Of a stretch of DNA of 64,000 nt, positions 24,610 through 42,905 are shown in pieces. A program made the translations under genes and the position numbers. The stretch lies in assembly GCA_017551865.1 (NCBI GenBank), contig JAFZKB010000020.1:86818-150817 (forward strand), read 5' to 3'. Origin of the DNA: Clostridiales bacterium (lineage in GTDB: Bacteria > Bacillota > Clostridia > Saccharofermentanales > Saccharofermentanaceae). Within the stretch, counting starts at the first letter, position 1, and each line of letters opens with the position of its first letter. Below the pieces are notes generated by a model, which did no database searches, was not told where the DNA came from, and saw only the letters and a list, made by a program, of their open reading frames with translations.

Positions 24610-24684
24610 TGGAGCCAATGGTGGGAATCGAACCCACGACCTATTCATTACGAGTGAATTGCTCTACCCCTGAGCCACATTGGC
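24610..24684 (-). tRNA. tRNA-Thr (anticodon CGT), CCA encoded
   Basis: The reverse complement folds as a clean cloverleaf. The acceptor is GCCAATG/CATTGGC, the D-arm is GCTC-AGGGGTA-GAGC, the anticodon arm is ATTCA-CTCGTAA-TGAAT, and the T-arm is GTGGG-TTCGATT-CCCAC. Confidence 0.9.
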
Positions 24685-24743: not shown

Positions 24744-24772
24744 TTGACTTCTCCCTAAATAGATGATACCTT
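24744..24772 (+). promoter_or_regulatory. Candidate promoter of the nitrogenase-like/ABC operon
   Basis: TTGACT (24744-24749), a 17-nt spacer, then TACCTT preceded by TGa (an extended -10). The -10 hexamer is weak. Confidence 0.3.
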
Positions 24773-24835
24773 ACACTAATGAGATCAAACCTCTGACATA
24801 AAGTTTTACTGAATGAAAGAAAGGATCCTAAAGTT

Positions 24836-25108
24836 ATGCAGACCAGAGTCGCTGTCATCAGCATTATTGTCGAAGACCCGTCGTCCGTGGAGAAGCTCAA
24901 TTCTCTTCTTCATGAGTATGGAAAATACATTATCGGACGCATGGGCATCCCTTACCGTGAGAAGAATATCAGCATCATCAGTATCGCCATCGATGCTCCT
25001 CAGGATGCCATTAATACGCTTTCCGGAAAGATCGGGAAGCTTTCCGGGATCACCTCGAAGACCGCGTATTCCAATGTAGTCTCCGACGGATCTGTCTCCG
25101 AAGGTTAA
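24836..25108 (+). CDS. TM1266-family small ACT/NikR-C-like protein (family usually labelled iron-only hydrogenase system regulator)
   Basis: RVAVISIIVEDPSSVEKLNSLLHEYGKYIIGRMGIPYREKNISIISIAIDAP matches my memory of the TM1266/TIGR03959 family. No DNA-binding domain is present. AAGGA lies 10 nt upstream of the ATG. Confidence 0.7.
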   Translation: MQTRVAVISIIVEDPSSVEKLNSLLHEYGKYIIGRMGIPYREKNISIISIAIDAPQDAINTLSGKIGKLSGITSKTAYSNVVSDGSVSEG

Positions 25109-25124
25109 GTTTCAGGTAAAGACT

Positions 25125-26144
25125 ATGAACAAGAAGCGTTCTGCCCTCTGGAAAACGTCCTATATTCTTGCGCTGATCGCCCTTCCCGTGATCCTTCTTC
25201 TGATCTGCCTTTGTATAGGAAGATACTTCGTATCCGTTCCTGAAGTGCTGGAGTGTATCGCTGCGCGTTTTTCGGATACAGACGGCATCAATAAGATGGC
25301 CTATATTACCGTATGGAATGTCCGTCTGCCGCGGCTTCTACTCGCTTTTTTGGTCGGTGCCGCACTTTCCTGCGCAGGCCTTATTTTCCAGAGTCTTTTC
25401 CAGAATCCTCTGGCCACACCGGACACGCTTGGAGTAGCAGGGGGCGCAAGCTTTGGTGCCGTGCTGTCGATCCTTCTCGGATTCACCGCGATCATTCTAC
25501 AACTCGTATCCTTTGCTTTCGGTTGTATCGCCGTGTCGCTGACGATGCTCGCCGCACGCGGAAAGACCCGAAATATGAGCACTATCGTCCTTTCCGGTAT
25601 CATGATGGGCTCCCTTTTTTCGGCCCTCGTTTCCCTGGTCAAATTTGCTGCCGATTCAGAACAGCAGCTGCCGTCCATCACCTACTGGCTGATGGGAAGC
25701 CTGCAGTCGGCTACATATAAGTCGATCGTGATCGGCATGATCCCGATCCTTATCAGTATCGTCATCCTTTTCCTGCTTCGCTGGAGACTGAATCTCCTTT
25801 TGCTTTCGGAAGAGGAAGCTGTCTCATCAGGATCAAATATCCGTATCCTTCGCCTTGCCGCGATCCTTTGTGCGACGGCCGCGACCGCATCTTCGATCTC
25901 CATGTGCGGACAGGTCGGCTGGGTCGGTCTGATCGTCCCGCATATGTGCCGCATGGCGCTCGGAAATGACCACAGATACCTGCTTCCCGCGTCGATCTCT
26001 CTGGGCGGATCCTTTATGATCGTCGTTGACACGCTTGCCCGTTCGATGTCCGCTTCCGAGATCCCGATCTCGATCCTGACAGCCATCATCGGCGCACCTT
26101 TCTTCTTATTCCTAATGAGAAAGAAAGGAGGCTGGTCACTATGA
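25125..26144 (+). CDS. FecCD/BtuC-family ABC permease (iron-chelate/corrinoid importer class)
   Basis: It has about 9-10 TM helices. RLPRLLLAFLVGAALSCAGLIFQSLFQNPLATPDTLGVAGGASFGAV is the FecCD signature region. Confidence 0.85.
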   Translation: MNKKRSALWKTSYILALIALPVILLLICLCIGRYFVSVPEVLECIAARFSDTDGINKMAYITVWNVRLPRLLLAFLVGAALSCAGLIFQSLFQNPLATPDTLGVAGGASFGAVLSILLGFTAIILQLVSFAFGCIAVSLTMLAARGKTRNMSTIVLSGIMMGSLFSALVSLVKFAADSEQQLPSITYWLMGSLQSATYKSIVIGMIPILISIVILFLLRWRLNLLLLSEEEAVSSGSNIRILRLAAILCATAATASSISMCGQVGWVGLIVPHMCRMALGNDHRYLLPASISLGGSFMIVVDTLARSMSASEIPISILTAIIGAPFFLFLMRKKGGWSL

Positions 26145-27223
26145 TCCTGAAGATCGAAAACGGGACCTTCGCATATAAGAAGGGCTCGCCGCTCTTTTCC
26201 GATGTAAACTTCGAACTCAATTCCGGCGACATCATCAGTATCCTCGGTCCAAACGGCGCCGGTAAGACGACCATGCTACGCGCGATCATGGGTATCCTTC
26301 CCTGGAGCTCCGGAAGAAGTCTTCTGGATAACGAAGATATTAAAGACCTCTCGCCCGCCAAAATGTGGTCGAAGGTCTCCTATGTCCCGCAGTCCCACGG
26401 AATCGCGGGAAGCTATACCATCCTGGATTCAGTTCTTTTCGGAATGACACCGAAGATCGGGGTCTTCTCTTCTCCCGGAAAAGAGGACATCGAGCATGCC
26501 GAGTCGATCCTCGATCGTCTGCACCTTACGAAACTTTCTAACAGGAAGTGTAACGAGTTAAGCGGCGGCGAACTGCAGATGACTTTGATCGCACGCGCCA
26601 TGGCCAGTGATCCGGGCATCATCATCTTAGACGAACCGGAGTCGAATCTCGACTTTAAAAACCAGATCATCGTACTCGATACGCTCACACAGCTGAGCGC
26701 TGAAGGAGTGGGCGTCCTTTTTAACACCCACTATCCGGACCATGCGCTTCGAAGATCCGGAAAAGCCCTTCTTCTCGACCATGGGAAAGTGCGTTTCGGG
26801 GCGACGAAAGAGATCATCACGGAAGAAAATCTTGCGGATGCTTTCGGCGTTAAGGCCATCATCGGAAGGATCGAGACCGACAGCAACCAGATCGATAACG
26901 TCATTCCTGTGTCGCTTCTTCCGAATAAGTCCGATACTTTGGAAAAAGAACAGCCAGAAGATACGGAAACTGACACACTCGCGAGCATCTCCATCATCTG
27001 CTCGGAATTCGAGGAATCCGGGAAGATCAACACGATCCTGCATGAATACCCGGATATCCTTTTCGGACGCATGGGCATGCCCCACAGAAAAAGAAATGTA
27101 TACCTGATCAACGTCAACCTCGACGGTCCGAAAAGAAGGATCGAGGAGCTTTCCCACAGACTCAGCCTCCTTCCTTCTGTCAGCGTCAAGGTCACATACG
27201 TAAAAGAGGAGGAACACTTATGA
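26141..27223 (+). CDS. ABC ATPase (FepC/BtuD class) with an extra C-terminal TM1266-like domain
   Basis: Walker A is GPNGAGKTT, the signature is LSGGELQ and Walker B is [12 protein letters not shown]. After a polar linker, the last ~82 aa (nt 26975..27220) read [52 protein letters not shown], clearly homologous to the first gene of the operon. Confidence 0.85.
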
Positions 27224-27978
27224 TCAAGATCGCTATCTACGGAAAAGGCGGTATCGGAAAATCCACCACCGTAAGTAACCTTGCCGCCGCATTTGCGGAC
27301 CAGGGCAAAAAGGTCATGCAGATCGGCTGCGACCCGAAGGCGGATTCCACCATCTCCCTGCGAGGTCAGGAGAAAATGGACACCGTCTTAGAGCTTGTAC
27401 GAAAAAGAGGAAAAGATCTGACCCTCGATGAGATGGTCAGGATCGGTTATAAGGGAGTGATCTGCGTTGAGGCCGGCGGTCCGACACCTGGTCTCGGATG
27501 CGCAGGAAGAGGCATCATCGCCGCTCTCGATAAACTGAAAGAAAATGGAGCATACGAAGTATATAAGCCGGATGTCGTGCTTTATGACGTACTCGGCGAC
27601 GTCGTCTGCGGCGGCTTTTCCATGCCGATGCGCGGCGGATATGCCGACAAAGTTTTCGTCATCACTTCCGGAGAAAATATGGCGATCCATGCAGCTGCGA
27701 ACATCGCGGTCGCGCTCGAAAACTTTCAAGGCAGAGGATATGCCTCTCTCGGCGGCGTCATCTTAAATCGAAGAAACGTGAAGGATGAAGTAAAAAAAGT
27801 AGAAGAGCTCTGCTCCGATATCGGATCTTCCATCATCGGGACACTTTCCCGAAGCGAGACCGTCACCGATGCCGAGGATCTCGGAAAGACAGTTATCGAG
27901 GCTTTCCCGGAAAGCGAAATGGCGGAAGAATACAGAACACTCGCACGTCAGGTCCTTGCCTGCTGTGAAGAAAAATAA
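27220..27978 (+). CDS. Nitrogenase iron protein-like ATPase (NifH/BchL/CfbC superfamily), 252 aa
   Basis: The motifs are [14 protein letters not shown] (P-loop), GCDPKADST (switch I), GLGCAGRGI and [15 protein letters not shown]. Both [4Fe-4S] Cys positions and switch II are present. Confidence 0.9.
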
Positions 27979-27990
27979 GGAATTAGGAAT

Positions 27991-29316
27991 ATGCTTCGAA
28001 AAGTAAATGGAATAGAAGTCAATATCGATCCGATCCCGATCAGGGACATCTCGTTCCCGAGCCCTTTTCCCGCAGGACTCGAGTTCTCCTCCCCTGCCCG
28101 CGGCACCTGGAACATCGCCCATCAGGGCATGCTGATCCCGCAGGCGCACGAGATCTTCGTCTGCGCCGCAAGCTGTCTTCGCGGTGTCGTACTGACCGCA
28201 TATGAGATGCGTGCCGAAAAGCGTTTTTCGACTGTCGCGGTCGAAGAAAGTAACCTGATCGAGGGCAATATGGAAGATCTCATCATCGATGGTGTCAGCC
28301 ACATCATCGAAGAACTTCCTCAAAAGCCGCCGTGCGTTCTGGTCTATACATCCTGTGTCCACCACTTCTGCGGCTGCGATCTGGATATGGTCTATAGAGA
28401 GCTCCGCTCCCGCTTCCCTAAGATCGATTTTACCGACTGCTATATGAACCCCATCATGAGAAAGAGCGGGCGCACACCGGACCAGATCATGAGAAGCCGT
28501 TTCTACAGTCTTCTGAAGCCGAAGGATATCCTGCCCGGTTCTGTTGCCTTTATCGGAAATGACTTTTCCACGGCCAAAGACAGCACGCTTTATAAGGCGC
28601 TTTCCTCCGCCGGTATCAAAATCTATGAGCTGACGGAATGTAAGACCTACGAAGAGTATCAGGAGATGGCGCGCGCCGAATACTATATCGTCGATTATCC
28701 ATCTGCTAAAGTCGGCGGAGAGGACCTCTCCGAGCGTCTATCGGGTAAACTTCTTTATCTTCCCTTCACCTTTACGTATAAGGAGATCCGGGAAAATGTC
28801 CGAAAGCTCAGTGAAGCGCTTCCTATCGTTCTTCCGGATTTTGATGCCGAGGAAGAAAAATGTGAAGAAGCTTTAGCTTCTTTAAAAGAACTGATAAAGG
28901 ACACACCGGTCGCAATCGACTACACTTCTTTCACGCGTCCACTGGGTCTTGCGCGACTTCTTCTCGACCACGGATTCAATGTCCGCCGCGTCTATGCCGA
29001 TGTTTTTATCGGAGAAGAAAAAGAAGACTACGAATACCTTTGCAAAAAGCACCCGGATCTGGAGGTCTGGCCGACGCTTTCTCCGCAGATGCGGTTTGCC
29101 GCCGATCATCAAAGATCCGATTATCTGTGTATCGGCCAGAAAGCCGCTCATTTTAACGGCGCGCCGCACTTCGTAGATATCGTCGAGAATGGCGGACTTT
29201 ACGGATACCAGGCAGTCACAAAACTCTGCGAACTTATGGAAGATGCATTTAGAAACGAAAAAGACATCCGGGAACGGATCTCGAAAAAGGCATGGGGGTG
29301 TGAAAGCTGCATATGA
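27991..29316 (+). CDS. Nitrogenase component-1-type oxidoreductase, alpha/NifD-NifE-BchN-like subunit (441 aa)
   Basis: It sits immediately after the NifH-like gene. It has a CAASC pair (about C58/C62) and VYTSCVHHFCGCD, which resembles the xSCxxxxxGxD segment of NifD/E and BchN. I saw no HCxRS-type FeMo-co Cys motif. Confidence 0.7.
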   Translation: MLRKVNGIEVNIDPIPIRDISFPSPFPAGLEFSSPARGTWNIAHQGMLIPQAHEIFVCAASCLRGVVLTAYEMRAEKRFSTVAVEESNLIEGNMEDLIIDGVSHIIEELPQKPPCVLVYTSCVHHFCGCDLDMVYRELRSRFPKIDFTDCYMNPIMRKSGRTPDQIMRSRFYSLLKPKDILPGSVAFIGNDFSTAKDSTLYKALSSAGIKIYELTECKTYEEYQEMARAEYYIVDYPSAKVGGEDLSERLSGKLLYLPFTFTYKEIRENVRKLSEALPIVLPDFDAEEEKCEEALASLKELIKDTPVAIDYTSFTRPLGLARLLLDHGFNVRRVYADVFIGEEKEDYEYLCKKHPDLEVWPTLSPQMRFAADHQRSDYLCIGQKAAHFNGAPHFVDIVENGGLYGYQAVTKLCELMEDAFRNEKDIRERISKKAWGCESCI

Positions 29317-30452
29317 ACCAGACAAGTAGGATCCTTTCCACATACAGTGCCGATGCATTCGGCGTCGCCTCTTCTCTCTTTGAGCTCGGCGGCATGGTGA
29401 TCATCCACGACGCTTCGGGATGTAACTCCACCTATACGACCCACGATGAGCCCCGCTGGTACGATATGGACAGCATGCTCTTTGTCTCCGCGATTTCCGA
29501 GATGGAGGCGATCATGGGCGATGATGAAAAACTCATCTCCGATATTGTCACGGAAGCCCGTAAATTCCACCCGCGATTCATCGCGATCGCAGGTACGCCA
29601 ATCCCTGCCATGACAGGTTTTGACGGTCCGAGTGTGGCGATGCAGATCGAAAATCTGACCGGTATCCCTTCCTTCGGATTCAACACGACCGGCATGAAGA
29701 CCTATGTCTCCGGCGCCGCGATGGCCCTTCGGGATCTGGCCGCGCGCTTCGTCCGAAAAGACATCACTCCGAAAAGGGACCACTATATCAATGTTCTGGG
29801 CGCGACTCCTCTCGATTTTTCCACAAACGGACAGATCGAGAGCATCGTAAAACTCCTTACCGGTCACGGCTGGAAGGTCAACTGCACCTACGCCATGAAC
29901 ACGACTTTCGAAGCCGTAGAAAACATGGGGTGTGCCGATGTAAACCTCGTTATCTCAAGTACCGGAAGAGACACTGCCGAGTTTCTGAAAGACACTTTCG
30001 GAACACCTTTTCTTGAAGCTGTGCCTTATGGAAAAGAATTCAGCAGGAAAGTCCTCTCTTCTCTCGAAAAGCTCTATAACGGAGAAGGAACGGATCTTTT
30101 CGAAACTAAGGATGCGCCTTCTGACGGGTGTTTTCTCATCGGTGAAGAGATCGCCGCTCTTTCGCTTTCGGAAGCGCTGCTTCTTGAAACAGGACGCTCT
30201 TTCCGCATCTTATGTCCCACAAACGATGGACCTCTCCTTCGTTCCACTGACCGCTACACGCCTTACGAAGACGATATCGTTGATGCTTTGTCCGGCGCGG
30301 AAACGGTCATCTGCGACCCCACCTACCGGAATATCCTGACCGATAAGGCCCGTGCCATCGACTGGCCGCACGAAGCCTGCTCGGGAAGGATCTACCGTAA
30401 ATATATTCCCAACTTGATCGGCGATATCTCGGATATCTCCGAAAAACTGTAA
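29313..30452 (+). CDS. Nitrogenase component-1-type oxidoreductase, beta/NifK-NifN-BchB-like subunit (379 aa)
   Basis: It overlaps the previous gene by 4 nt. The N-terminus is YSADAFGVASSLFELGGMVIIHDASGCNSTYTTHDEPRWY, followed by FIAIAGTPIPAMTGFD. There is only one Cys (about C37) in the first ~110 aa. Confidence 0.65.
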   Translation: MNQTSRILSTYSADAFGVASSLFELGGMVIIHDASGCNSTYTTHDEPRWYDMDSMLFVSAISEMEAIMGDDEKLISDIVTEARKFHPRFIAIAGTPIPAMTGFDGPSVAMQIENLTGIPSFGFNTTGMKTYVSGAAMALRDLAARFVRKDITPKRDHYINVLGATPLDFSTNGQIESIVKLLTGHGWKVNCTYAMNTTFEAVENMGCADVNLVISSTGRDTAEFLKDTFGTPFLEAVPYGKEFSRKVLSSLEKLYNGEGTDLFETKDAPSDGCFLIGEEIAALSLSEALLLETGRSFRILCPTNDGPLLRSTDRYTPYEDDIVDALSGAETVICDPTYRNILTDKARAIDWPHEACSGRIYRKYIPNLIGDISDISEKL

Positions 30453-30470
30453 GAAAAGAAGGTAATTGAA

Positions 30471-31595
30471 ATGAACAAAAAACGCATTCTCTCTCTGATC
30501 GTAACGGTCGTCATGGTCATGTCCTTCGGGCAGTCCATGGGCTGTAAGGCAAAATCAAAGAAAGATTCTTCGGGAACCCACGTGGTCACGGACCATAACG
30601 GCAATCAGGTAGAGGTCAAAAATCAGATCGACCGAATCGTCGTCTGTGACATCCTCCCGCTCCCTTCCGTCCTGACCGTATTCTTTGACTCAGGTAAGAA
30701 GATCGTCGGCATGAACGAAGCCAGCATGATCGCTGCCAAAAACGGTCTTCTCGGCCAGCTCTATCCCGAGATCCTTGAGGCTTCCACATCCTTTATGGAC
30801 GGATCGAACGTCAATATCGAAGAACTCACAAAGCTTCAGCCGGATATCGTCTTTTACAGCGGATCGAATAAAGAACTCGGAGAACAGCTGAGAAACAGCG
30901 GTTTTTCAGCGATCGGTATTTCCGTTAATAAATGGAACTATAACACGATCGAGACTTTGAACAACTGGTTTTCTCTTTTAGGCGAGATCTTCCAGGAGAA
31001 CGATAAGGCTGAGAAAGTTGCCAAGAGAAGCAACGAGATCTATAAGCTCGTGCAGGAACGCGTCAACAGCATTCCGCAGGATCAAAAACAGCGTGTCTTC
31101 TTCCTGTTTCAGGTCAACGAGACGAATATCACGACATCCGGAAAACTCTTTTTCGGACAGTTCTGGGCCGAGGCCATAGGTGCCGTAAACGTCGGCGAGG
31201 AACTGACGACAGATAACTCTGTGGCAGTAAATATCGAGCAGGTCTATACGTGGAATCCGACATTGATCTTCATCACGAATTTCAATCAGGCTTATCCGGA
31301 AGATCTTTACGGAAATACCATCGGCAACTATGACTGGAGTGAGATCGACGCCGTCAAGAACAAAAACGTCTTTAAGATGCCGTTAGGAATGTATAGAAGC
31401 TATACCCCGGGCGCCGATACCCCGATCACGCTCCTTTACCTCGCAAAATGCGCTTATCCGGATCTTTTCGCGGATATCGACATCACGGCCGAAGCGAAAA
31501 GTTACTACAAGGATCTGTTCGGGATCGATCTTACGGATGAACAGATAAACGGCATCTTTAATCCGGATGCCGCCTCTGGTAATGTGTATATCTGA
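30471..31595 (+). CDS. Periplasmic-binding-protein-type (cluster A/class III, FhuD/BtuF-like) substrate-binding lipoprotein
   Basis: It has a signal peptide ending in GQSMGC, a loose lipobox. RIVVCDILPLPSVL, PDIVFYSGS and WNPTLIFITN are typical of iron-chelate/B12 SBPs. Confidence 0.75.
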   Translation: MNKKRILSLIVTVVMVMSFGQSMGCKAKSKKDSSGTHVVTDHNGNQVEVKNQIDRIVVCDILPLPSVLTVFFDSGKKIVGMNEASMIAAKNGLLGQLYPEILEASTSFMDGSNVNIEELTKLQPDIVFYSGSNKELGEQLRNSGFSAIGISVNKWNYNTIETLNNWFSLLGEIFQENDKAEKVAKRSNEIYKLVQERVNSIPQDQKQRVFFLFQVNETNITTSGKLFFGQFWAEAIGAVNVGEELTTDNSVAVNIEQVYTWNPTLIFITNFNQAYPEDLYGNTIGNYDWSEIDAVKNKNVFKMPLGMYRSYTPGADTPITLLYLAKCAYPDLFADIDITAEAKSYYKDLFGIDLTDEQINGIFNPDAASGNVYI

Positions 31596-33563: not shown

Positions 33564-34886
33564 TTACTTAAGACGCATCATCGTCTTTTTCGTCTCTTCC
33601 TTCACCTTCTCAAGATCGATCGTCTTCAGTTCATGCTTATAAAGCACGAAGTTACCATCGATCATGACGGATTCCACACACTTCGGTCCGCAGGAATAGA
33701 CCAGCGAAGAGACCGGATTTCCGAGAGGCCACATCTGCGGGCAATCGTAGTCAATGATCTGAATATCCGCGCGATAGCCTTTATCTATAATACCACAATC
33801 TTCAAAACCGCAAGCGAGATATCCGTTTCTCGTCGCCATCGTGAAGACTTCCGATGCCGAAAGAAGCGTCGGATCACAGGTGGATCCCTTGGCGATAAAC
33901 GAAGCAAGCTTCATCTCCTGGAACATATCCTGATTATTGTTGCTTGCCGCTCCATCGGTTCCGAGGCAGAGCCTTACCCCTGCTTTCTGCATTTTGAAAA
34001 GATCCGCAAGTCCGGATGCGAGCTTCATATTACTTGACGGGTTATGGGCGACCCATACCTTACGGTCGGAAAGGATCATCCTGTCCTGATCATCGAGATG
34101 CACGCAGTGAGCGGCAACTGTCGTATCGCAAAGGAGTCCCGCTTCGTCGAGCTTTACGACAGGAGATACACCATAGCTCTTAACACAGTTTTCGATCTCG
34201 GTCTTCGTCTCGGAGATATGGACACTTACCGGAAGATCGAATTCCTTCGCCACTTCGGAAAGAGGCTTATAGAACTCTTCCGGATAAAGATAGATCGAAT
34301 GCACCAGAAGGCTCGGCTTAATAAGTTCCGTATTCTGTTCCTTAATGAAAGCCAGAAAATCCTCGACATTTTTACGATCGACACTCCAGACGCCGTCCTT
34401 AAAGGTCTTTCCCATAACGGTCTGCTGGACACGGAATCCCGTCTCAATAGCGCCTTTGGCAATCTCGATCTGACCATCGTACATATTTGCAGCACAGGCT
34501 GTTCCGCCTTCGATCATCTCAGCCAGAGTCAGAAGATTTCCATAGTAGAAATCTCCGGAGATCATCTTATCTTCTCTCGGGATGATCTCTCCGAAGAGCC
34601 AGTCCTGAAGAGATGTATCATCGGCGATGTTCCGGAAAATAGACATCGGAGTATGCGCATGGGCATTGGCAAATGTCGGACAGAGGATCTTGTTCTTTCC
34701 TTCATAGACGAACCAGACCTCAGCACCCGAAGCTTTTAAAGCAACTTCCGCCTCTTCTTTCGAAGTGCCCACATAGACGATATGACTTCTGAAAACGGAG
34801 CAGTAGCCGTTTTCGATAACAGATACCGGGGAATCATCATGCGGGGTAACGATGGTGAACCCGGAAAATAAAACGGACTTACTCAT
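33564..34886 (-). CDS. mtaD: Amidohydrolase-superfamily MTA/SAH (5'-deoxyadenosine) deaminase
   Basis: It has the HAHTPMS metal motif, the later HSIY and HCVHL segments, and NPSSNMKLASG. This is the MtaD/DadD/Tm0936-type pattern. Confidence 0.75.
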   Translation of the reverse strand: MSKSVLFSGFTIVTPHDDSPVSVIENGYCSVFRSHIVYVGTSKEEAEVALKASGAEVWFVYEGKNKILCPTFANAHAHTPMSIFRNIADDTSLQDWLFGEIIPREDKMISGDFYYGNLLTLAEMIEGGTACAANMYDGQIEIAKGAIETGFRVQQTVMGKTFKDGVWSVDRKNVEDFLAFIKEQNTELIKPSLLVHSIYLYPEEFYKPLSEVAKEFDLPVSVHISETKTEIENCVKSYGVSPVVKLDEAGLLCDTTVAAHCVHLDDQDRMILSDRKVWVAHNPSSNMKLASGLADLFKMQKAGVRLCLGTDGAASNNNQDMFQEMKLASFIAKGSTCDPTLLSASEVFTMATRNGYLACGFEDCGIIDKGYRADIQIIDYDCPQMWPLGNPVSSLVYSCGPKCVESVMIDGNFVLYKHELKTIDLEKVKEETKKTMMRLK

Positions 34887-34889
34887 AAA

Positions 34890-36155
34890 TCACTCCTCCA
34901 GATCCCAGGAATGAATGTATCTGTCCTGTTCCGGTGTAAGCTTATCGATGGAATACCCCTTCGACTTTAAGAGGAACTCACCGACACGGTCATCGATGAC
35001 GACCGGAGTATCATATACATGCTTGGCCAGGTCTTTTCCATGCTCGGCAATATATCTGGCGCTCTGGGCCTGAAGGGCAAAACTCATATCCATGATCTCT
35101 ACAGGATGTCCGTCTCCGCTGGCAAGGTTGACCAGACGGCCTTCGGCGAGGATACAGATCGTTCTTCCGTCCTCCATGACGAATCCCTCGATATTTTTCC
35201 TTAATTCTTTTCTTTCTTTTGCCATTTCCGCAAGCTGAACGAGATTGATCTCGACGTCAAAATGGCCGGCATTACAGCAGATCGCGCCATCCTTCATCTT
35301 CTCAAAGTGCTGCTTCGTGATGACGTCCTTACAGCCGGTCACCGTCACGAAAACATCTCCTAACGGAGCTGCTTCATCCATGGTCATGACATCGTAGCCT
35401 TCCATAATAGCTTCGCAGGCTTTTACAGAATCGATCTCGGTCACGATGACACGGGCACCCATCCCCTTGGCACGAAGAGCTACACCCTTACCGCACATAC
35501 CGAAACCGGCAACAACAACATATTTACCGGCAACAATCAGGTTCGTCGTCGCCATAATAGCGGTCCATACAGATTGACCGGTACCGAAACGGTTATCGAA
35601 AAGGTGCTTACAGCGTGCATCGTTTACGGCGATGACCGGATAAGCGAGTCTTCCCTCTTCTTCCAGGATCTTGAGTCTGTGAACACCTGTAGTCGTCTCT
35701 TCACATGCACCGAGCATGCCGGAAACAAGATGCTGATGCGTAGAGTGCAAAAGCATAGCGAGGTCGCCGCCGTCATCGATCACGATGTCCGGGCCGAAAG
35801 CGAGCGTCATTTCGAGGTGTCTTCTGTATGTCTCCGGATCTGCGCCATGGATACAGTAAACCTTCATTCCGCGCTCAACTAGAGCAGCAGCCACGTCGTC
35901 CTGCGTGGAAAGCGGATTACATCCTGTAAGTGCCACATCTGCGCCACCTTCGCGAAGAACGAGCGCAAGATTTGCAGTCTTTGCTTCAACATGAACGCTG
36001 ACAGAGATCTTTAATCCCTCAAACGGACGTGTTTCTTTTAATTCTTTCTCGATAATACGAAGAACGGGCATATTCCTATATGCCCAATCGATCTTATGAT
36101 GTCCTTCCGGCGCCAAAGCGATGTCTTTGATTTCATAGCGAGGTAAATCACTCAT
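34890..36155 (-). CDS. ahcY: Adenosylhomocysteinase-family hydrolase, short archaeal/Thermotoga-type (421 aa)
   Basis: The motifs are IDWAYRNMPVL, GCNPLSTQDDVAAAL, EETTTGVHRL, DNRFGTGQS and the NAD-binding GFGMCGKGVA. Confidence 0.85.
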   Translation of the reverse strand: MSDLPRYEIKDIALAPEGHHKIDWAYRNMPVLRIIEKELKETRPFEGLKISVSVHVEAKTANLALVLREGGADVALTGCNPLSTQDDVAAALVERGMKVYCIHGADPETYRRHLEMTLAFGPDIVIDDGGDLAMLLHSTHQHLVSGMLGACEETTTGVHRLKILEEEGRLAYPVIAVNDARCKHLFDNRFGTGQSVWTAIMATTNLIVAGKYVVVAGFGMCGKGVALRAKGMGARVIVTEIDSVKACEAIMEGYDVMTMDEAAPLGDVFVTVTGCKDVITKQHFEKMKDGAICCNAGHFDVEINLVQLAEMAKERKELRKNIEGFVMEDGRTICILAEGRLVNLASGDGHPVEIMDMSFALQAQSARYIAEHGKDLAKHVYDTPVVIDDRVGEFLLKSKGYSIDKLTPEQDRYIHSWDLEE

Positions 36156-36166
36156 AAAAAGCCTCC

Positions 36167-36991
36167 TTACAATTTGGAGAAGAACTTCTCCATTAAAGCA
36201 ATACTGTTTTTCGAGGAAGCATTCGCATTCTTCATGACTTCCTCATGGGAAAGCGGCTGCCCGGATATACCGGCCGCAAAATTGGTAATGCAGGAAACTG
36301 CAAGTATTTTCAGGCCACTATGACTGCCGGCGATCGCTTCCGCTACCGTGGACATACCAACGGCATCGGCTCCGAGCACGGAAAGTGCACGTATCTCGGC
36401 AGGTGTCTCATACTGGGGACCTCGGGTATAGGCGTATACACCCTCATGAAGAGGAATGTGAAGTTCGGAAGCAGATTCCTTTAAAAGATCACGTAAACCC
36501 TTGTCATAGACACTGGTCTGATCCGGGAAACGCGGGCCAAACTCATCCAGATTCCCACCTCGAAGCGGAGAATCACAGAAAAGACCGATATGATCGGTGA
36601 TCACCATAAGCTCCGATGGGTTCATGTTTTTATTGATCCCGCCGGCGGCATTGGTCATGATGAGATTCTTCACACCGAGTTTAGCCATGACGCGTACATA
36701 GAATGTCGCTTCCTGTGTAGAATAACCTTCGTAATAATGGAAACGTCCCTTCATGATGAATGTCAGTCTATTTGAAAGACGTGCCACCAGAAGCTTACCG
36801 TCATGTCCCGCGACAGTCGTCTTCGGGAAATGCGGGATCGCTTCATAGGGGATCTCTTTGATCGTCTCCACGCGCTCGGTCAAAGGACCAAGTCCCGACC
36901 CAAGCACAAGACAGGTATCCGGAATCTCGGATACCTGTGTCTTGATAAATTCAGATGCCTCAAGGATGTCTTTAATGTAAGGCTCAGTCAT
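36167..36991 (-). CDS. Purine nucleoside phosphorylase, trimeric PNP/MTAP family
   Basis: The motifs are LVLGSGLG, GRFHYYEGY, NAAGG and GMSTVAEAI. The start is the ATG at 36991 (MTEPYIK), which overlaps the secA stop by 8 nt. The longer ORF-track N-terminus is a frame-shadow of secA. Confidence 0.8.
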   Translation of the reverse strand: MTEPYIKDILEASEFIKTQVSEIPDTCLVLGSGLGPLTERVETIKEIPYEAIPHFPKTTVAGHDGKLLVARLSNRLTFIMKGRFHYYEGYSTQEATFYVRVMAKLGVKNLIMTNAAGGINKNMNPSELMVITDHIGLFCDSPLRGGNLDEFGPRFPDQTSVYDKGLRDLLKESASELHIPLHEGVYAYTRGPQYETPAEIRALSVLGADAVGMSTVAEAIAGSHSGLKILAVSCITNFAAGISGQPLSHEEVMKNANASSKNSIALMEKFFSKL

Positions 36992-39806
36992 TGGAATCCT
37001 TTCCACAGCAGTTCTTATACTTCTTGCCGCTTCCGCACGGACACGGATCATTGCGGCCGACCTTCTTGGAGTCACGCTTTGCCGGCTGGTTCTGTACGAT
37101 ACCTGCCTGCTGGTTTGCCTTTGCATCTGCACCGGACTGGGCACGCTTAGCAACCGCATCGAGCTGAGCACTGCCGTGACCTTCCTGGAGCTTCTTAACA
37201 GAAGACTTTCTCTCGATCTTCTGACCGGCTTCGATATTCGCCTTCATAACGAGTCTTACAGTATCGTTCTGGATCAGCATGTTCATTTCATCGAACATCT
37301 CAGAACCTTCGATACGGTACTCTACGACCGGATCCTTCTGGCCGACACTTCTCATGCCGATCGCATTACGGAGCTGATCCATCGCATCGATGTGATCCAT
37401 CCACTTCTGGTCAACGTTGAACAGGAGGATCTGGCGCTCAGCTTCACGGAAGATCTCAGGAGTGAATTCTTCATCACGCTGCTCGATCTTCTCAAGAGCC
37501 TGTTCGACAAGCTTTTCGGAGATATCTTCAGCATCCGCTGTTTCTTTATCATTAATGGTCTTAGTGATCTCATCAATTACCGGTACCTGACCGAATACAT
37601 CAGAGATATTGGCCTTTAAGCCCTTGCACTCTTCGGTATTGATCTTTCCGTCAAGAGCCACACGCTCTACAACACGCTCAGCAACAGCGGTAGACATTTT
37701 CTTGATGGTGTCATGGATATCCATACCATCGAGGACCTTACGGCGCTGTTCGTAGATAAGATTTCTCTGTACGTTCATAACATCGTCGTACTCGAGTACG
37801 TGTCGTCTTGCGCTGAAGTTCATGCCCTCGACCTTCTTCTGGGCGCTCTCAATCTGCTTGGAAAGGATACCGGACTGGATCTCAACCGTCTCATCTACGC
37901 CGAGAGTCTCAAATGCCGCATTGGCACGTTCACCACCGAAAAGACGCATTAGATCGTCATCAAGAGCCAGGAAGAACTTCGTGCGTCCCGGGTCACCCTG
38001 ACGGCCGGCACGACCACGGAGCTGGTTATCGATACGACGGGATTCGTGACGTTCTGTACCAATGATAAAAAGTCCGCCTGCTTCGATGACCTTCTGGGTC
38101 TCGCCTGCGATCTTCTCTTTGATCTCCTTCTCGAGAGTGGAGAAACGCGTTCTCGCTTCGAGGATCGTCTCATCATCTGTTTCGTTATATGCTGTGGAAG
38201 CATCGATCAGTTCTTCGGTATAACCGAGCTTTCTCATCTCCTGCTTAGCCATGAACTCGGGGTTACCACCGAGCAGAATATCGGTACCACGGCCGGCCAT
38301 GTTCGTTGCGATGGTGACCGCGCCGAGACGACCTGCCTGAGCGACGATCTCCGCCTCTCGCAGGTGGTTCTTCGCGTTCAATACATTATGCTGAATACCC
38401 GCACGGGTGAAGATCTTGGAAAGGAACTCGGACTTACTTACCTCAACCGTACCTACGAGTACCGGTTGACCCTTTTCATGCGCTTCTTTTACCTGACGGA
38501 GAACAGCTGCATACTTACCGCTCTGGTTCTTATACACAGCATCGTGCTCGTCAATACGCTGGATCTTCTTATTTGTCGGGATCTGGATAACATCGAGACT
38601 GTAGATCTGACGGAATTCGGATTCCTCTGTATAAGCTGTACCAGTCATACCGGCAAGCTTTTCATACATACGGAAATAATTCTGGAAAGTGATGGTAGCG
38701 AGCGTCTTGGATTCTCTTTCTACCTTAACGCCTTCCTTCGCTTCAATAGCCTGGTGGAGACCGTCGCTGAAACGACGACCGTACATCAGACGGCCGGTAA
38801 AGTCGTCAACGATGATAACCTCACCATTAGTAACAACGTACTTCTGGTCACGCTCCATCGTACCATTGGCCTTGAGGGCGTTATTGATGTAGTGCTGAAG
38901 ATCGAAATTCTCCGGATCGGAAAGGTTGTTGACGTTGAAGTGTTTCTCTGCCTTTTCAATACCCTTAGCGGTAAGAACAGCCGTCTTTGCCTTCTCATCG
39001 ACAACGTAATCGCAATCGCCGCTGACATCGTCGATATCGACCTTTTCATCCGTCTCAACAACGACGAATTTCTTAAGAGTCTTTACGAAGCGGTCCGCCT
39101 TAACATACATGTCGGAAGACTCGCCGCCCATACCGGAAATGATAAGAGGAGTTCTCGCTTCATCAATGAGGATACTATCGACCTCGTCGACGATGGCGTA
39201 TACGAGATCACGCTGTACCATCTTCTCTTTTCTGTCGACCATGTTATCACGCAGATAGTCGAATCCGAATTCGTTGTTGGTACCATAAGTGATATCGGAG
39301 TTATATGCCTTACGGCGTTCGTCATTGTCGAGATCATGAACGATCAGTCCGACGGAAAGACCTAAGTAACGGTAAACCTTACCCATCCACTCACTGTCTC
39401 TTCGTGCCAGGTAATCGTTAACGGTTACGACGTGAACACCGCGTCCCGAAAGAGCATTCAGATATACCGGAAGCGTAGCCACAAGGGTCTTACCTTCACC
39501 GGTCTTCATCTCGGCGATACGGCCCTGGTGGAGAATGATACCACCGATCAACTGTACCTGGAAGTGTTTCATGCCTAAAACTCGTTTGGCGGCCTCACGG
39601 ACAGTAGCAAAAGCGTCCGGAAGGATATCATCTAATGTTTCTCCATCCGCCAGACGCTTTTTCAGTACGTTGGTCATATTCTTAAGCTCATCTTCCGACA
39701 TCTTCTCATACTTGTCGGAAAGGCTCTCGATCGCTTCAACGATCGGCATGATGTGCTTGATCTCGTGATCGCTGTGCGTTCCGAAGATCTTGGTAATAAT
39801 GCTCAT
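36984..39806 (-). CDS. secA: Preprotein translocase ATPase SecA
   Basis: It has the full-length SecA pattern (MKTGEGKTLVATLP, DEVDSILIDEARTPLIISG, TNMAGRGTDI). The C-terminus carries the zinc motif [14 protein letters not shown]. Confidence 0.95.
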   Translation of the reverse strand: MSIITKIFGTHSDHEIKHIMPIVEAIESLSDKYEKMSEDELKNMTNVLKKRLADGETLDDILPDAFATVREAAKRVLGMKHFQVQLIGGIILHQGRIAEMKTGEGKTLVATLPVYLNALSGRGVHVVTVNDYLARRDSEWMGKVYRYLGLSVGLIVHDLDNDERRKAYNSDITYGTNNEFGFDYLRDNMVDRKEKMVQRDLVYAIVDEVDSILIDEARTPLIISGMGGESSDMYVKADRFVKTLKKFVVVETDEKVDIDDVSGDCDYVVDEKAKTAVLTAKGIEKAEKHFNVNNLSDPENFDLQHYINNALKANGTMERDQKYVVTNGEVIIVDDFTGRLMYGRRFSDGLHQAIEAKEGVKVERESKTLATITFQNYFRMYEKLAGMTGTAYTEESEFRQIYSLDVIQIPTNKKIQRIDEHDAVYKNQSGKYAAVLRQVKEAHEKGQPVLVGTVEVSKSEFLSKIFTRAGIQHNVLNAKNHLREAEIVAQAGRLGAVTIATNMAGRGTDILLGGNPEFMAKQEMRKLGYTEELIDASTAYNETDDETILEARTRFSTLEKEIKEKIAGETQKVIEAGGLFIIGTERHESRRIDNQLRGRAGRQGDPGRTKFFLALDDDLMRLFGGERANAAFETLGVDETVEIQSGILSKQIESAQKKVEGMNFSARRHVLEYDDVMNVQRNLIYEQRRKVLDGMDIHDTIKKMSTAVAERVVERVALDGKINTEECKGLKANISDVFGQVPVIDEITKTINDKETADAEDISEKLVEQALEKIEQRDEEFTPEIFREAERQILLFNVDQKWMDHIDAMDQLRNAIGMRSVGQKDPVVEYRIEGSEMFDEMNMLIQNDTVRLVMKANIEAGQKIERKSSVKKLQEGHGSAQLDAVAKRAQSGADAKANQQAGIVQNQPAKRDSKKVGRNDPCPCGSGKKYKNCCGKDSND

Positions 39807-40486: not shown

Positions 40487-41518
40487 TCACTCGGATGGTT
40501 CTTCCTCCGTAATGTACCGGTGTGAATTCCCGTACTCTTTGATTCTGATCTCCACTCCCCTTTTCTTTGCATAATCTCTGAGCTCTTCGATATACTTTCT
40601 GCACTCCTCTGAGCCGTTTTTCGGGATGATGATGATAAGCGTTCTTTTTTTGACCTCACCACTGCTTATGGTATATCCGCCGTACTTTGCTCCGTCAAAT
40701 CCTGATAGGTCTCGGATATACGAGCGGATCTTATCTTTTAAGGCCTTTTCACTCTGATAATACGGAGATGTCGTATCGATACTTTTGATCGATATGGCTT
40801 CATTCCCGTCAAATGAGCTTATCGTCGGAAAATTGTACGGAAGATCACCTCCGAACTTCTCCCGAAGGATCTCTCCTCTTTCGAAGTTTTCTTTTTCCCA
40901 GACCGAATCTGCCTCGGGGTCTTCCTTTTTCTCTCCAGAGCCATCCGGGAACTTCTCGGCATAAATTGCCAGCGAGGAGCAGTACGATCTTGGGATCCCT
41001 ACAGGGCCGGCCGCAAGATCATAGTAAACATAAAGATAGATACTCTTCTGCTTCCCTTCGTAATCCAGATACACAGAACAGTTTTGAAGGATCTTATCGT
41101 AGACCCACCCGTCTTTTGACAGTTTCCCGTATTCGATCAGGATGCGGTCACGGACGAACCGACCAAAGATCGCGGTACTGATCACGTCTTCGAGGTCAAT
41201 GCCCGTTACACCGCTGGCTATGCCAAAATACCCCATCACTTCTTCAAGTGTATGGCTTTCCGAATCCGAAGGACCCGAAAACCCGAGGAATGAGGAGATA
41301 TCGTCCACACAAAGGATACCCTGTGAAGCCAGAGGGATCGCGACATTTAGTTCCGACACCACGTTTTCTGTTGCTCGCTGGATATATAGATCCGCATTTA
41401 CAGCAGTGATGGAAGAGATCATGGCCGCAAGGAACAAAAGAAATATGGGAGTCGCAATCGAGGCCTCAAGTATGATCGATCCGCAAGAAAGGGAAAGCCG
41501 TCTAACTCTCATTCTCAT
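40487..41518 (-). CDS. TadE-like N-terminal membrane anchor protein with a ~120-aa distinct C-terminal domain
   Basis: The start is the ATG at 41518, after AAGGAGG. The N-terminus MRMRVRRLSLSCGSIILEASIATPIFLLFLAAM fits the TadE-type GS..(V/L)E...P motif. The rest I do not recognise. Confidence 0.6.
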   Translation of the reverse strand: MRMRVRRLSLSCGSIILEASIATPIFLLFLAAMISSITAVNADLYIQRATENVVSELNVAIPLASQGILCVDDISSFLGFSGPSDSESHTLEEVMGYFGIASGVTGIDLEDVISTAIFGRFVRDRILIEYGKLSKDGWVYDKILQNCSVYLDYEGKQKSIYLYVYYDLAAGPVGIPRSYCSSLAIYAEKFPDGSGEKKEDPEADSVWEKENFERGEILREKFGGDLPYNFPTISSFDGNEAISIKSIDTTSPYYQSEKALKDKIRSYIRDLSGFDGAKYGGYTISSGEVKKRTLIIIIPKNGSEECRKYIEELRDYAKKRGVEIRIKEYGNSHRYITEEEPSE

Positions 41519-42896
41519 AGAGTGAATACCTCCTTTCGACCTGATAAGAGACATCTTTCCAAGTACCCGTCGCCCGAACACCTGTATACAGGTCTTCCCC
41601 GCAATCTTTCTCGATAATGTACTGCATTCTCGAAAGAAGCTTATCTTCCGGAACCAGGAAAAGAAATACCCGATAATAGTCCCGATAAACCGTATCAGCG
41701 AATTTGCCGAGCCTGCTCGTCACTTTATCGTTATAAAAAAGCGGGACGGTCTTTCCGGACGTAAGCTTCAGCACATCACTGAACGCACGGATATAGGCCA
41801 TTGCAAATATGACAAAGAACTGAAGTACCCTCGGTGAGATGATGACGGTAAAACAGGAGATCACCATGATCAGTATCGACATAACTTCCGCGATCGCCAG
41901 CGCGAGCTTCCTTTTGCCTGAATCCATTAAAAAAGCACTCAGATCCAAAATCAATCGAGTTCCCAGGAGGAAACCGAAAGATGCGGAACGTTTATAAAAA
42001 TCACTATCGTTTCCGACCAGAAGATACTCCAGATCCAGACGGTTCTCCCCGTGTATATCAGAAAACGGGATACCAAGGATATTGCACTCCTCTTCTTCGT
42101 CTGAATCTTCATAGGATTTCACCAGCGAGTCGAAAGAAAACGATGCGTATTCATTAATGAGAAACCGGTCGACCAGAGCGGGCATATCCCAGTCAAGATA
42201 TCGGTCGAACACGCCGGCGATTGTCGAAACACAGGTCGGATCGTAGATGGAAAGGACGATAGATGTATCTCCGGCCTGAAATGCCGCGCTGCTGTCCGCA
42301 CGCCACACATCGTCGAGCTGATCCACGAAATTCGTAAATTCCTGGACCTTATCCTCAATTCCCGTCGCCTCGCAGATCTTTTTCACGATACCCCAGAAGA
42401 ATGAGTATTTCTCGCGGTTCTGTACATACTTTTTAAACTTCGGAAGCCAGGTAGAGAGTTTGTCAGTATTGTACGTTCCTCTCGAAAGGTCTTTGAGAGA
42501 AGCTCCGAGCCGTTCGATAATGCCGTGACCTTCAAAGGCGATCCCGCGAAGTTTCATAAAATCAATGATCGAGGTCCGAATATCCTCAGGCCCGATTTTG
42601 TCCGTCAGTTCGTATTGGAAAGAAGTCTCCTCCATGCCTGACGTCATGGTCTCAAACACCGACGACCCCGCTTCGATGCTGTCGAGCGCATAGATCCCGT
42701 ACCAGTCAAGATAATCCTTGTTAAACTGGGACATGATCTGTTCCGCCTGGTGATTCACCGCTTCAGTCAGGATGACTTCCCGTTTTCTTCGATACGCCCC
42801 GGAAATAAATATGCTTTCTAAAACAATGATCGCCGAGAGGATCAGACACAGAAATACCGTGATCGACCCGCGCCGGCCGAATAGTTTCTTTTTCAT
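41502..42896 (-). CDS. TadG/DUF5702-like membrane protein (N-terminal and C-proximal TM segments)
   Basis: The start is the ATG at 42896, 5 nt after AGGAGG. MKKKLFGRRGSITVFLCLILSAIIVLE is a Tad-like N-terminus. A hydrophobic block lies near residue 330-380. The family name is from memory only. Confidence 0.55.
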   Translation of the reverse strand: MKKKLFGRRGSITVFLCLILSAIIVLESIFISGAYRRKREVILTEAVNHQAEQIMSQFNKDYLDWYGIYALDSIEAGSSVFETMTSGMEETSFQYELTDKIGPEDIRTSIIDFMKLRGIAFEGHGIIERLGASLKDLSRGTYNTDKLSTWLPKFKKYVQNREKYSFFWGIVKKICEATGIEDKVQEFTNFVDQLDDVWRADSSAAFQAGDTSIVLSIYDPTCVSTIAGVFDRYLDWDMPALVDRFLINEYASFSFDSLVKSYEDSDEEEECNILGIPFSDIHGENRLDLEYLLVGNDSDFYKRSASFGFLLGTRLILDLSAFLMDSGKRKLALAIAEVMSILIMVISCFTVIISPRVLQFFVIFAMAYIRAFSDVLKLTSGKTVPLFYNDKVTSRLGKFADTVYRDYYRVFLFLVPEDKLLSRMQYIIEKDCGEDLYTGVRATGTWKDVSYQVERRYSLYENES

Positions 42897-42905
42897 AGAC
42901 ACCTC

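Follow-up and report, generated by a model that had tools for sequence, protein, structure and literature searches.

A nitrogenase-like reductase and a FecCD-type importer in one operon of gut Clostridia, with a regulator and a leader RNA in common with [FeFe]-hydrogenase maturation genes

The DNA considered here, a 64,000-nt stretch of contig JAFZKB010000020.1 from a Clostridiales bacterium of the Saccharofermentanaceae (hereafter the window, meaning the whole stretch), carries at positions 24836-31595 an operon in which the genes of a three-component nitrogenase-like reductase are embedded in those of an ATP-binding cassette (ABC) importer. Seven open reading frames (ORFs) follow one another on the forward strand: T, a TM1266-family small protein of 90 aa (24836..25108; TIGR03959, PF21699); P, a FecCD-family permease of a type II ABC importer (25125..26144; PF01032); A, an ABC ATPase with an additional C-terminal TM1266-like domain (26141..27223; ABC_tran, PF21699); H, a NifH-like ATPase/reductase, or component 2 (27220..27978; Fer4_NifH); a D-like component-1 subunit of 441 aa (27991..29316) and a K-like one of 379 aa (29313..30452), both assigned to PF00148 (Oxidored_nitro); and S, a class III Peripla_BP_2 substrate-binding lipoprotein (30471..31595; PF01497). 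In the ORF list the successive gaps are 16, -4, -4, 12, -4 and 18 nt, three of the junctions being 4-base start/stop overlaps, and no intergenic terminator is predicted inside the operon. An earlier sequence-only reading of this DNA had given the same seven same-strand genes and the same gaps, which are exact, and its gene assignments are upheld by Pfam and NCBIfam. An identical operon is carried by a metagenome scaffold in ENA.

The H protein matches Fer4_NifH (PF00142) at 1.5e-87, and its alignment to the Clostridium pasteurianum NifH (PDB 1cp2) confirms the motifs and the two cluster cysteines listed in that reading: the P-loop GKGGIGKS, switch I (CDPKADST) and switch II are all kept, and Cys94 and Cys130 stand at the C97 and C132 positions of NifH. 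The predicted H dimer has every motif for MgATP-gated electron delivery. It is equally close to NifH and MarH (~244 bits each), and its 327.1 bits against the nifH model TIGR01287 lie under the cut-off of 394.35, so that it is not a bona fide NifH; scores against CfbC (NF033200, 314.5 bits, cut-off 402), BchL (200 bits, cut-off 345) and BchX (157 bits, cut-off 331) are likewise under threshold. The D-like and K-like subunits match PF00148 (6.9e-17 and 2.4e-30, respectively) and fall far under the NCBIfam cut-offs for NifD/E/K/N and BchN/B, with 20-46 bits from the BchN/BchB models (cut-offs 324-490), 20.1 (D-like) and 62.5 bits (K-like) from the NifE model (cut-off 505), and 20 bits from NifN (cut-off 327). 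Taken as a single sequence, the D-like protein has no significant match among PDB chains (the best is NifE, E 0.07), and a scan of 1.84 billion representative proteins returned only 848 relatives at E <=1e-3. Its family profile finds NifE at 1e-15, VnfD at 2e-13, MarD at 1e-8 and ChlN, the N subunit of the dark-operative protochlorophyllide oxidoreductase (DPOR), at 2e-4, and its AlphaFold2 (AF2) model, with a predicted local distance difference test (pLDDT) of 92.5, is placed by Foldseek at template modeling (TM) scores of 0.57-0.66 and 10-17% identity to all component-1 proteins. The PDB matches of the K-like protein are NifD and NifE, at ~1e-10. Since the D-like subunit is about equidistant from the solved component-1 proteins and the scores stay under the cut-offs, with no relative favored by PDB, profile or Foldseek comparison, the reductase lies outside the characterized clades (DPOR, the chlorophyllide oxidoreductase COR, CfbCD and Mar), which is in favor of the sequence-only reading.

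Across 47 diverse homologues, Cys62 and Cys122 are the sole invariant cysteines of the D-like protein; Cys122 aligns in the profile alignment to NifE Cys124 (= NifD Cys154), and Cys62 is assigned to NifD Cys88/NifE C62 by spacing and motif only. In the K-like protein only Cys37 is conserved as a cluster cysteine; it lies in the highly conserved motif HDASGCNSTYTTHDEPRW (HDASGC) and is assigned, again by spacing and motif only, to NifK Cys95/NifN Cys44. Of the positions that make up the inter-subunit [4Fe-4S] site of NifEN (NifE C37, C62 and C124; NifN C44), three out of four thus appear to be kept, two of them by spacing and motif only. The column of NifE C250 (NifD C275), which holds the cysteine of the iron-molybdenum cofactor (FeMo-co) or L-cluster, is occupied by a non-cysteine residue, none being conserved among the 47 homologues, and two invariant cysteines in the D-like and one in the K-like subunit fall short of the three P-cluster cysteines per subunit that mark the Group IV enzymes with complex clusters (Mar, Isr and Nfa). 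A NifB-type gene was found neither in the window nor in the gene tables and annotated flanks of related loci, where the radical S-adenosylmethionine (SAM) genes adjoining reductase genes are those of HydE only. H::D and D::K fusion proteins exist among the relatives. These features suggest that the D/K pair carries a single inter-subunit [4Fe-4S] relay, whose fourth ligand may be a non-cysteine residue or a nearby alternative (candidates being the semi-conserved Cys58 and the conserved His, Asp or Glu residues of the K-like N-terminus), and that it would catalyze a low-potential, few-electron reduction.

The importer genes are equally recognizable at the family level. The permease matches FecCD (PF01032) at 1.7e-85, with BtuC, FhuB and FecD as top NCBIfam models, all under their cut-offs; the ATPase matches ABC_tran at 7.5e-30; and the binding protein, which has a signal peptide and Cys25, matches Peripla_BP_2 (PF01497) at 1.3e-19. 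With its FecCD permease, Peripla_BP_2 receptor and ABC ATPase, the operon encodes a type II (FecCD/BtuCD-like) importer, for which the weak, sub-cut-off NCBIfam matches are BtuC, corrinoid/heme ABC ATPase families and IsdE (50.8 bits). The binding protein is 58-83% identical across the Clostridia relatives and 38-42% identical to two distant ones. Its best PDB match is 4ovk (3.8e-47), to which its AF2 model (pLDDT 87.6) aligns with TM scores of 0.80/0.90, followed in order by MolA (molybdate/tungstate), the Helicobacter pylori CeuE (Ni-histidine), 'iron' binders from E. eligens and Thermotoga, and YiuA, a binder of iron with catecholate fragments; HmuT (heme), the Campylobacter jejuni CeuE (tetradentate catecholate), HtsA (staphyloferrin) and BtuF (B12) rank lower, in sequence and fold searches. 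This ranking, which does not by itself identify the ligand, favors a small metal chelate over a macrocycle, and the imported cargo is probably a small metal chelate, with iron as the likeliest metal.

Two TM1266-type domains are encoded in the operon. T scores 118.9 bits against TIGR03959, above the equivalog cut-off of 60.8 (PF21699, 5e-33; PDB 2nzc, 9e-14), and belongs to a family named by NCBIfam as putative iron-only hydrogenase system regulator, a name that also appears among the differentially expressed entries in a table of PMC11633334 (section 3.3.1), which may offer a homologous system amenable to study. The only further match of the T family profile is a weak one to the C-terminal regulatory domain of NikR (E 0.18). 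The second domain forms residues 281-350 of the ATPase (~nt 26981-27190; PF21699, 1.9e-16), keeps the TM1266 family invariants N, L, Y, R-M-G, P, D, K and Y, and recurs in 43 of 57 related ATPases. As the invariants of the fold (Asn, Tyr, Arg, Asp, Lys and Tyr) include no Cys and at most one His, a small-molecule site appears likelier than a metal site. Within the searched literature, a TM1266-type regulatory domain on an importer has not been described.

Upstream of T, a putative promoter can be read from the sequence at 24744..24772 on the forward strand (TTGACT, 17 nt and an extended -10 element, TGATACCTT), with the same layout in relatives L006 and L004 (related loci are cited here by such L numbers); a strict consensus promoter scan did not call it, and it stays putative. 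It is followed on the same strand by a leader RNA hairpin (24790..24826), recognized by a covariance model match and by covariation. The model, built from 34 leader copies, was searched against 1.47 Mb and gave 51 matches, all on the operon strand and all adjoining T genes; its one match in the window lies at 24790-24824 (32.6 bits, E 2.4e-4). The hairpin is composed of invariant C-G and U-A pairs, a tandem purine-purine step, a covarying helix of 3-4 bp, tandem G.A/A.G, two A-U pairs and a loop of variable length, which sometimes holds an extra hairpin. The covarying helix occurs as CACC/GGUG, CGUC/GACG, UAUC/GAUA, CAUC/GAUG, UACC/GGUA or CGCC/GGCG, and as CAU/AUG in the window. Compensatory changes are found at all four variable pairs; 96.8-98.5% of cells are paired, against <=48% when the partners are slid, and 23-25 cells show double changes, against 6-7.2 in shuffles (0/500). 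Matches resembling the motif at the starts of binding-protein genes were rejected as false positives, being a direct repeat of CTGAGTATGAAGA in the coding start on which the covariance model is silent.

In most relatives the motif is followed by an intrinsic terminator whose 5' arm complements the motif's 3' tail, the layout of a terminator/antiterminator switch. The window and its closest relatives have no terminator; in the window, the 3' strand of the hairpin runs on into the Shine-Dalgarno sequence, part of which is paired in the outer stem, CCUCU being paired with AGAAAGG in the minimum-free-energy fold. The leader matches no family of Rfam 15, at gathering score for the window and seven loci or at E <=10 for two leaders, and the search returned only tRNAs and an unrelated SAM riboswitch. 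Control by a cobalamin, nickel-cobalt (NiCo), manganese (Mn) or molybdenum cofactor (Moco) riboswitch was rejected on the grounds that this search gave no such match. Iron-responsive control was considered as well and set aside, a DtxR-type gene lying 5 kb from one distant relative only, with no systematic search for Fur/DtxR boxes made; a paper on the Fur regulon of Clostridioides difficile and its supplements make no mention of nitrogenase genes.

To what extent is this arrangement conserved? A degenerate-pattern scan of one genome per species, with a pattern derived from 14 closer sequences, found relatives of the reductase in at least 594 species genomes, most carriers being metagenome-assembled genomes, and the clade's proteins fell into over 3,700 clusters (90% identity) in a word-prefiltered search. 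The 80 loci kept for comparison are all from gut or rumen Clostridia (Lachnospiraceae, Oscillospiraceae, Anaerovoracaceae/Mogibacterium, Ruminococcus and Clostridiaceae), and their ORFs were labelled by homology to the window proteins and then clustered. The order T-P-A-H-D-K-S recurs nearly everywhere, the full set being present in 45 of the 52 species-representative loci with both flanks. Relatives at 27-29% identity retain the linkage of reductase and importer in the orders H-D-K-S-P-A and S-P-A-D-K-H. Another example comes from a second phylum, on replicon pTS1 of the cultured rumen spirochaete Treponema saccharophilum JCM 32279 (424 kb, NZ_AP025289.1; L088, 86935-94591), where genes for NifH, two component-1 proteins, a binding protein, a FecCD permease and an ABC ATPase are accompanied by a second, divergent binding-protein gene, and neither the TM1266 gene nor the leader motif is present. 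With three gene orders, 27-100% identity and two phyla, the linkage of reductase and importer is real and ancient, and not obligatory; the sequence-only reading had made such conservation a condition of its proposal, and the two modules do form a conserved unit.

The genes associated with this unit point to the maturation of [FeFe]-hydrogenases. Among the 61 loci whose upstream sequence suffices, 30 have hydE between A and H, where it fills a gap of ~1 kb, and the HydE proteins of related loci are bona fide (TIGR03956, 533-554 bits, cut-off 255); among the 62 whose downstream sequence suffices, S is followed by hydF in 25 (TIGR03918, 570 bits, cut-off 326). Two loci, L085 (1063-11995) and L086, carry hypF-hypC-hypD-hypE, T, H::D, K, hydF and hydE, with no hydG; L087 (11181-17781) combines hypC-hypD-hypE and hydE with several component-1 genes, and in L120 (1151-3537) hypE overlaps the D-like gene. 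Judged from their gene content, these mixtures of [NiFe]-type hyp and [FeFe]-type hyd genes look like a hybrid maturation gene set. In none of the 87 reductase loci did hydG turn up within 10 kb, whereas it is present in all eight canonical operons whose contigs are long enough (in L099, for example, HydG scores 926 bits and T 119 bits). A motif scan found no hydA near the related loci.

The leader RNA leads to the same genes. An exact-pattern scan of public metagenome contigs gave 31 matches, 28 of them adjoining a TM1266 gene. Fourteen belong to T-P-A operons, of which four show reductase genes and one (L095) shows none, most of the other contigs being too short; one belongs to a T-hydE-H-D-K operon (L092); 13 belong to hyd operons with T and without reductase or importer, which on the longer contigs read motif-T-hydE-hydG-hydF or T-motif-hydF-hydE-hydG; and three are other or truncated. 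The position of T upstream of the motif in some lineages fits a T protein acting in trans. Being common to hydE/hydG/hydF operons, T and the leader RNA constitute a control module for genes of the H-cluster maturases, and the window operon stands under it with the same polarity, so that T, treated in the sequence-only reading as a passive neighbor, is better seen with the leader RNA as what ties the operon to the hydE/hydG/hydF regulon. The leader hairpin, which across about 50 related loci adjoins every TM1266-family gene examined, is accordingly a candidate for a riboswitch of a new kind, or for an attenuator dependent on a protein, acting on maturase, importer and nitrogenase-like operons. 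Two copies of the motif were also observed away from any TM1266 gene (L090, 1395-1425; L094, 443-474): one, with a terminator, precedes the gene of an SsuA/NMT1-like lipoprotein of another ABC transporter class, and the other precedes recJ.

Taken together, the operon may represent an import and ATP-driven reduction module of the [FeFe]-hydrogenase maturation regulon, serving the supply of the hydrogenase cofactor and not nitrogen fixation, a reading adopted here only tentatively from gene content and sequence. The importer would take in a small metal chelate, most likely iron-containing, and H-D-K would process this chelate, or a cytoplasmic derivative of it, at the expense of ATP, the reaction being a reductive release of the metal or a conversion to a form usable in the assembly of the H-cluster. 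The leader hairpin would be stabilized by a ligand or by the TM1266 protein and its folding would shut the operon off, through occlusion of the ribosome-binding site in the window and by allowing the terminator to form in most relatives. The TM1266-like domain of the ATPase might add a feedback (trans-)inhibition of the importer by the same signal, in the manner of the C-terminal domains of MetN and ModC.

Several observations weigh against such a module. The window contains no nif, tetrapyrrole, hydrogenase or maturase genes according to family annotation, nor any hydE or hydF by tblastn (the sequence-only reading had rightly reported the lack of nif and tetrapyrrole genes nearby), so that in this genome the link to hydrogenases is carried only by T and the leader RNA. 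For the most part, reductase-linked HydE proteins branch apart from their counterparts in canonical operons and are possibly specialized paralogues; the tree is a simple and weak neighbor-joining one, in which the split could reflect either paralogy or taxonomy. Three distant loci (L082-L084) and Treponema have no T gene, no motif and no hyd genes. T-H-D-K is kept and P, A and S are lost in L034, L060 and L081, the first of these at the same chromosomal position as its transporter-bearing relatives; L092 (T-hydE-H-D-K) has no importer; and L095 (965-4643) is a motif-T-P-A-S operon without nitrogenase-like genes. The reductase and importer modules are hence separable, and the importer alone can be under TM1266/leader control. 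The best structural match of the binding protein, 4ovk, is a Veillonella structural-genomics protein without an assigned ligand. Finally, one off-switch for both an importer and iron-consuming maturases misfits a simple response to iron starvation. That the imported molecule is the substrate of the reductase, as proposed in the sequence-only reading, is thus plausible and not compelled, as the modules also occur separately.

Could the reductase instead build the cofactor itself? In an alternative that we regard as unlikely, D/K would be a NifEN-like scaffold and H its reductant or insertase, delivering an organometallic iron unit to HydE/HydF or receiving one from HypCD and replacing HydG partly or wholly, and the importer would merely supply metal. 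NifE is the best profile match of the D-like protein, and the three cysteines it retains together with the K-like protein would correspond to the [4Fe-4S] site of NifEN; the operon can have hydE and hydF embedded in it, and hydG is missing within 10 kb in the 87 loci but present in the eight canonical operons; the hyp-containing clusters dispense with hydG as well; T-H-D-K persists without the importer; and an assembly of metal cofactors has already been proposed for these clades by Dos Santos et al. (PMC3464626). On the other hand, the transporter-type clusters hold no source of CN or CO, and the deep relatives pair the reductase with the importer alone. The absence of hydG over 20 kb is weak evidence, because in Clostridia this gene commonly lies apart from hydE and hydF. 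H-cluster maturation has been reconstituted in vitro without any nitrogenase-like protein.

The substrate class suggested by the sequence-only reading, namely a heme, corrinoid or chlorophyll breakdown product that would be imported and reduced at its macrocycle or metal for salvage or metal extraction, independently of hydrogenases, is quite unlikely on the present evidence. It draws on the simple type of the D/K cysteine pattern, as every characterized nitrogenase-like enzyme whose catalytic component is of the simple [4Fe-4S] kind has a tetrapyrrole as its substrate (PMC13474568); on the inclusion of heme and B12 importers in the group with FecCD permeases and class III receptors, together with the sub-cut-off matches to BtuC, to the corrinoid/heme ATPases and to IsdE; and on the many carriers in rumen and gut, which are rich in heme and chlorophyll derivatives. 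Against it, the Rfam search found neither a cobalamin nor any other known riboswitch, no genes of tetrapyrrole biosynthesis or degradation were seen in the annotated parts of ~120 loci, and binders of the HmuT, BtuF and IsdE types rank under binders of small metal species. It also leaves unexplained the presence of hydE and hydF in the operon, the hyp linkage, and the regulator and leader held in common with hydEGF.

A further combination of claims is improbable: that H-D-K is an unrecognized [FeFe]-hydrogenase maturation factor standing in the place of hydG, with HydE/HydF and in some lineages HypCDEF, and that at the same time the leader is a riboswitch or attenuator sensing a metabolite of H-cluster maturation. 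An iron-carbonyl/cyanide unit would then be made, or made again, by reducing CO2 or an imported iron complex on D/K, in a HydG-independent or HydG-sparing manner. A chance insertion of the reductase, leaving two independent units side by side, is very improbable: the modules do occur apart in the five loci cited above, but three or more gene orders retain their linkage, which spans two phyla and 27-100% identity, and the window set has three 4-base overlaps, no internal terminator and one leader RNA ahead of the whole. The probability left over by all these readings goes to something else.

Upstream of the operon lies a divergent tRNA-Thr(CGU) gene (24610-24684, reverse strand), an arrangement kept in L003-L006, whose strong consensus promoter (TTGACA, 17 nt, TATATT; 24733-24705) overlaps the region upstream of the operon; downstream lies a convergent nicotinate phosphoribosyltransferase gene, and the remainder of the window consists of housekeeping genes. 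The statement of the sequence-only reading that no sulfur-salvage genes are nearby needs qualifying, as 2 kb downstream and on the opposite strand (33564-37171) there is a trio for the recycling of S-adenosylhomocysteine (AdoHcy) and methylthioadenosine (MTA), made of an amidohydrolase resembling MTA/SAH deaminases, an AdoHcy hydrolase and a PNP_UDP_1 protein; this flank is common to the closest relatives only, and the trio is therefore probably incidental. Elsewhere in the window, a 510-aa ORF (12705-14237, reverse strand) joins a YbeY endoribonuclease domain, an Era-type GTPase and a KH domain, YbeY and Era being normally separate proteins. A 1010-aa ORF (4649-7681, forward strand) combines carboxylesterase and GH43 glycoside hydrolase domains in one fusion and adjoins genes for an alpha-L-arabinofuranosidase and a sugar kinase, probably a locus for hemicellulose degradation. 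An ORF with a nuclease domain resembling the contact-dependent inhibition (CDI) toxin of EC869 follows a DUF5702 protein (40487-42902, reverse strand) and may belong to a toxin or polymorphic-toxin module.

Time and again, nitrogenase-like enzymes have been found to perform unexpected chemistry, in the synthesis of chlorophyll and F430 and in the cleavage of C-S bonds, and the present clade is very common in gut and rumen Clostridia. To our knowledge, it is the only one associated with a FecCD-type importer together with a regulator, a leader RNA and maturase genes of [FeFe]-hydrogenases. If the link is functional, gut hydrogen metabolism would gain a step of metal supply or cofactor construction. 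The binding protein, the 35-nt RNA and the cultured carrier Treponema saccharophilum, confirmed here, offer testable entry points, and further cultured carriers named in the literature are Coprococcus catus and Dorea longicatena.

The architecture is less novel than the sequence-only reading had supposed. Dos Santos et al. (2012, BMC Genomics 13:162; PMC3464626) had already noted nitrogenase-like genes beside ABC transporters and hydrogenase maturation genes, in a clade comprising Mlab_1039/1040, Dhaf_1539/1540, Coprococcus catus GD/7 as well as Dorea longicatena (Methanocorpusculum, Desulfitobacterium, Coprococcus and Dorea), with gut Firmicutes among the carriers, two cysteines in the alpha-like subunit (NifD C88/C154 positions), one in the beta-like subunit (NifK C95) and no FeMo-co ligands. 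Likened by description, that clade has the '2+1 cysteine' pattern and the ABC and hydrogenase-maturation neighbors found here, but the paper is a phylogenetic and contextual note that assigns no function and describes neither regulator nor leader RNA. The literature searched holds nothing further on the clade: a 2026 review names uncharacterized nitrogenase-like clades as the main open problem of the field without discussing this one or its transporter (PMC13474568), and a proteome paper on Methanococcus voltae was set aside as concerning other proteins. Within this literature, three points appear to be new: the extent to which the linkage is conserved, as counted here, the importer ATPase's TM1266 domain, and the common leader RNA with the assignment to the hydrogenase maturation regulon that follows from it.

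How does the system compare with characterized ones? With DPOR and COR (Group V) it has in common the three-protein, ATP-dependent design and, as predicted for D/K, one [4Fe-4S] cluster between the subunits bound by fewer than four cysteines, without NifB or a complex cluster; structural identity is, however, only 10-17% (TM ~0.6), no chlorophyll-pathway context is seen in the window flanks or the annotated related loci, and the coupling to an importer and to hydrogenase maturase genes is found only here. The CfbCD enzyme has a close NifH-like subunit (314 bits) and a simple catalytic cluster, but CfbD is a single homomeric subunit, in contrast to the two distinct ones (441 and 379 aa) found here in a bacterial, non-methanogen host with no cfbA/B/E nearby. 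NifEN with NifH resembles the system in the best profile match of the D-like protein, in the cysteines that seem to match NifE C62/C124 and NifN C44, and in a genomic company of metallocofactor maturases, and differs from it by the L-cluster-site cysteine, NifB and the nif genes, all of which are lacking here. The Mar (MarBHDK, Group IV-C) and Isr (IsrBHDK, Group IV-F) systems are also nitrogenase-like with substrates other than nitrogen, and Isr is co-expressed with ABC importers for its own substrate. Mar, in contrast, has P-type and L-type clusters and, like Isr, a NifB-type partner, whereas the D-like protein lacks those ligands and matches MarD (1e-8) more weakly than NifE; moreover, the importers there are of the sulfonate type, and that of the window operon is of the FecCD and class III type. 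By their description, the Group VI nitrogen fixation-like (NFL) proteins of the Elusimicrobia type similarly have no NifB and at most four cluster cysteines, but in a context rich in radical SAM genes, HydE being the only one here and the hosts being Clostridia and Treponema.

On the transport side, the combination of a FecCD permease, a Peripla_BP_2 receptor and an ATPase is that of BtuCD-F, MolBC-A and HmuUV-T, and the extra C-terminal domain of the ligand-binding type on the ATPase recalls MetNI and ModBC and suggests trans-inhibition, with a TM1266-type domain in their stead. On the regulatory side, the TM1266-led hydE-hydG-hydF operons differ from the window operon in containing hydG and in having no importer or nitrogenase-like genes, but they open with the same TM1266 equivalog and the same leader hairpin, in their case with a terminator.

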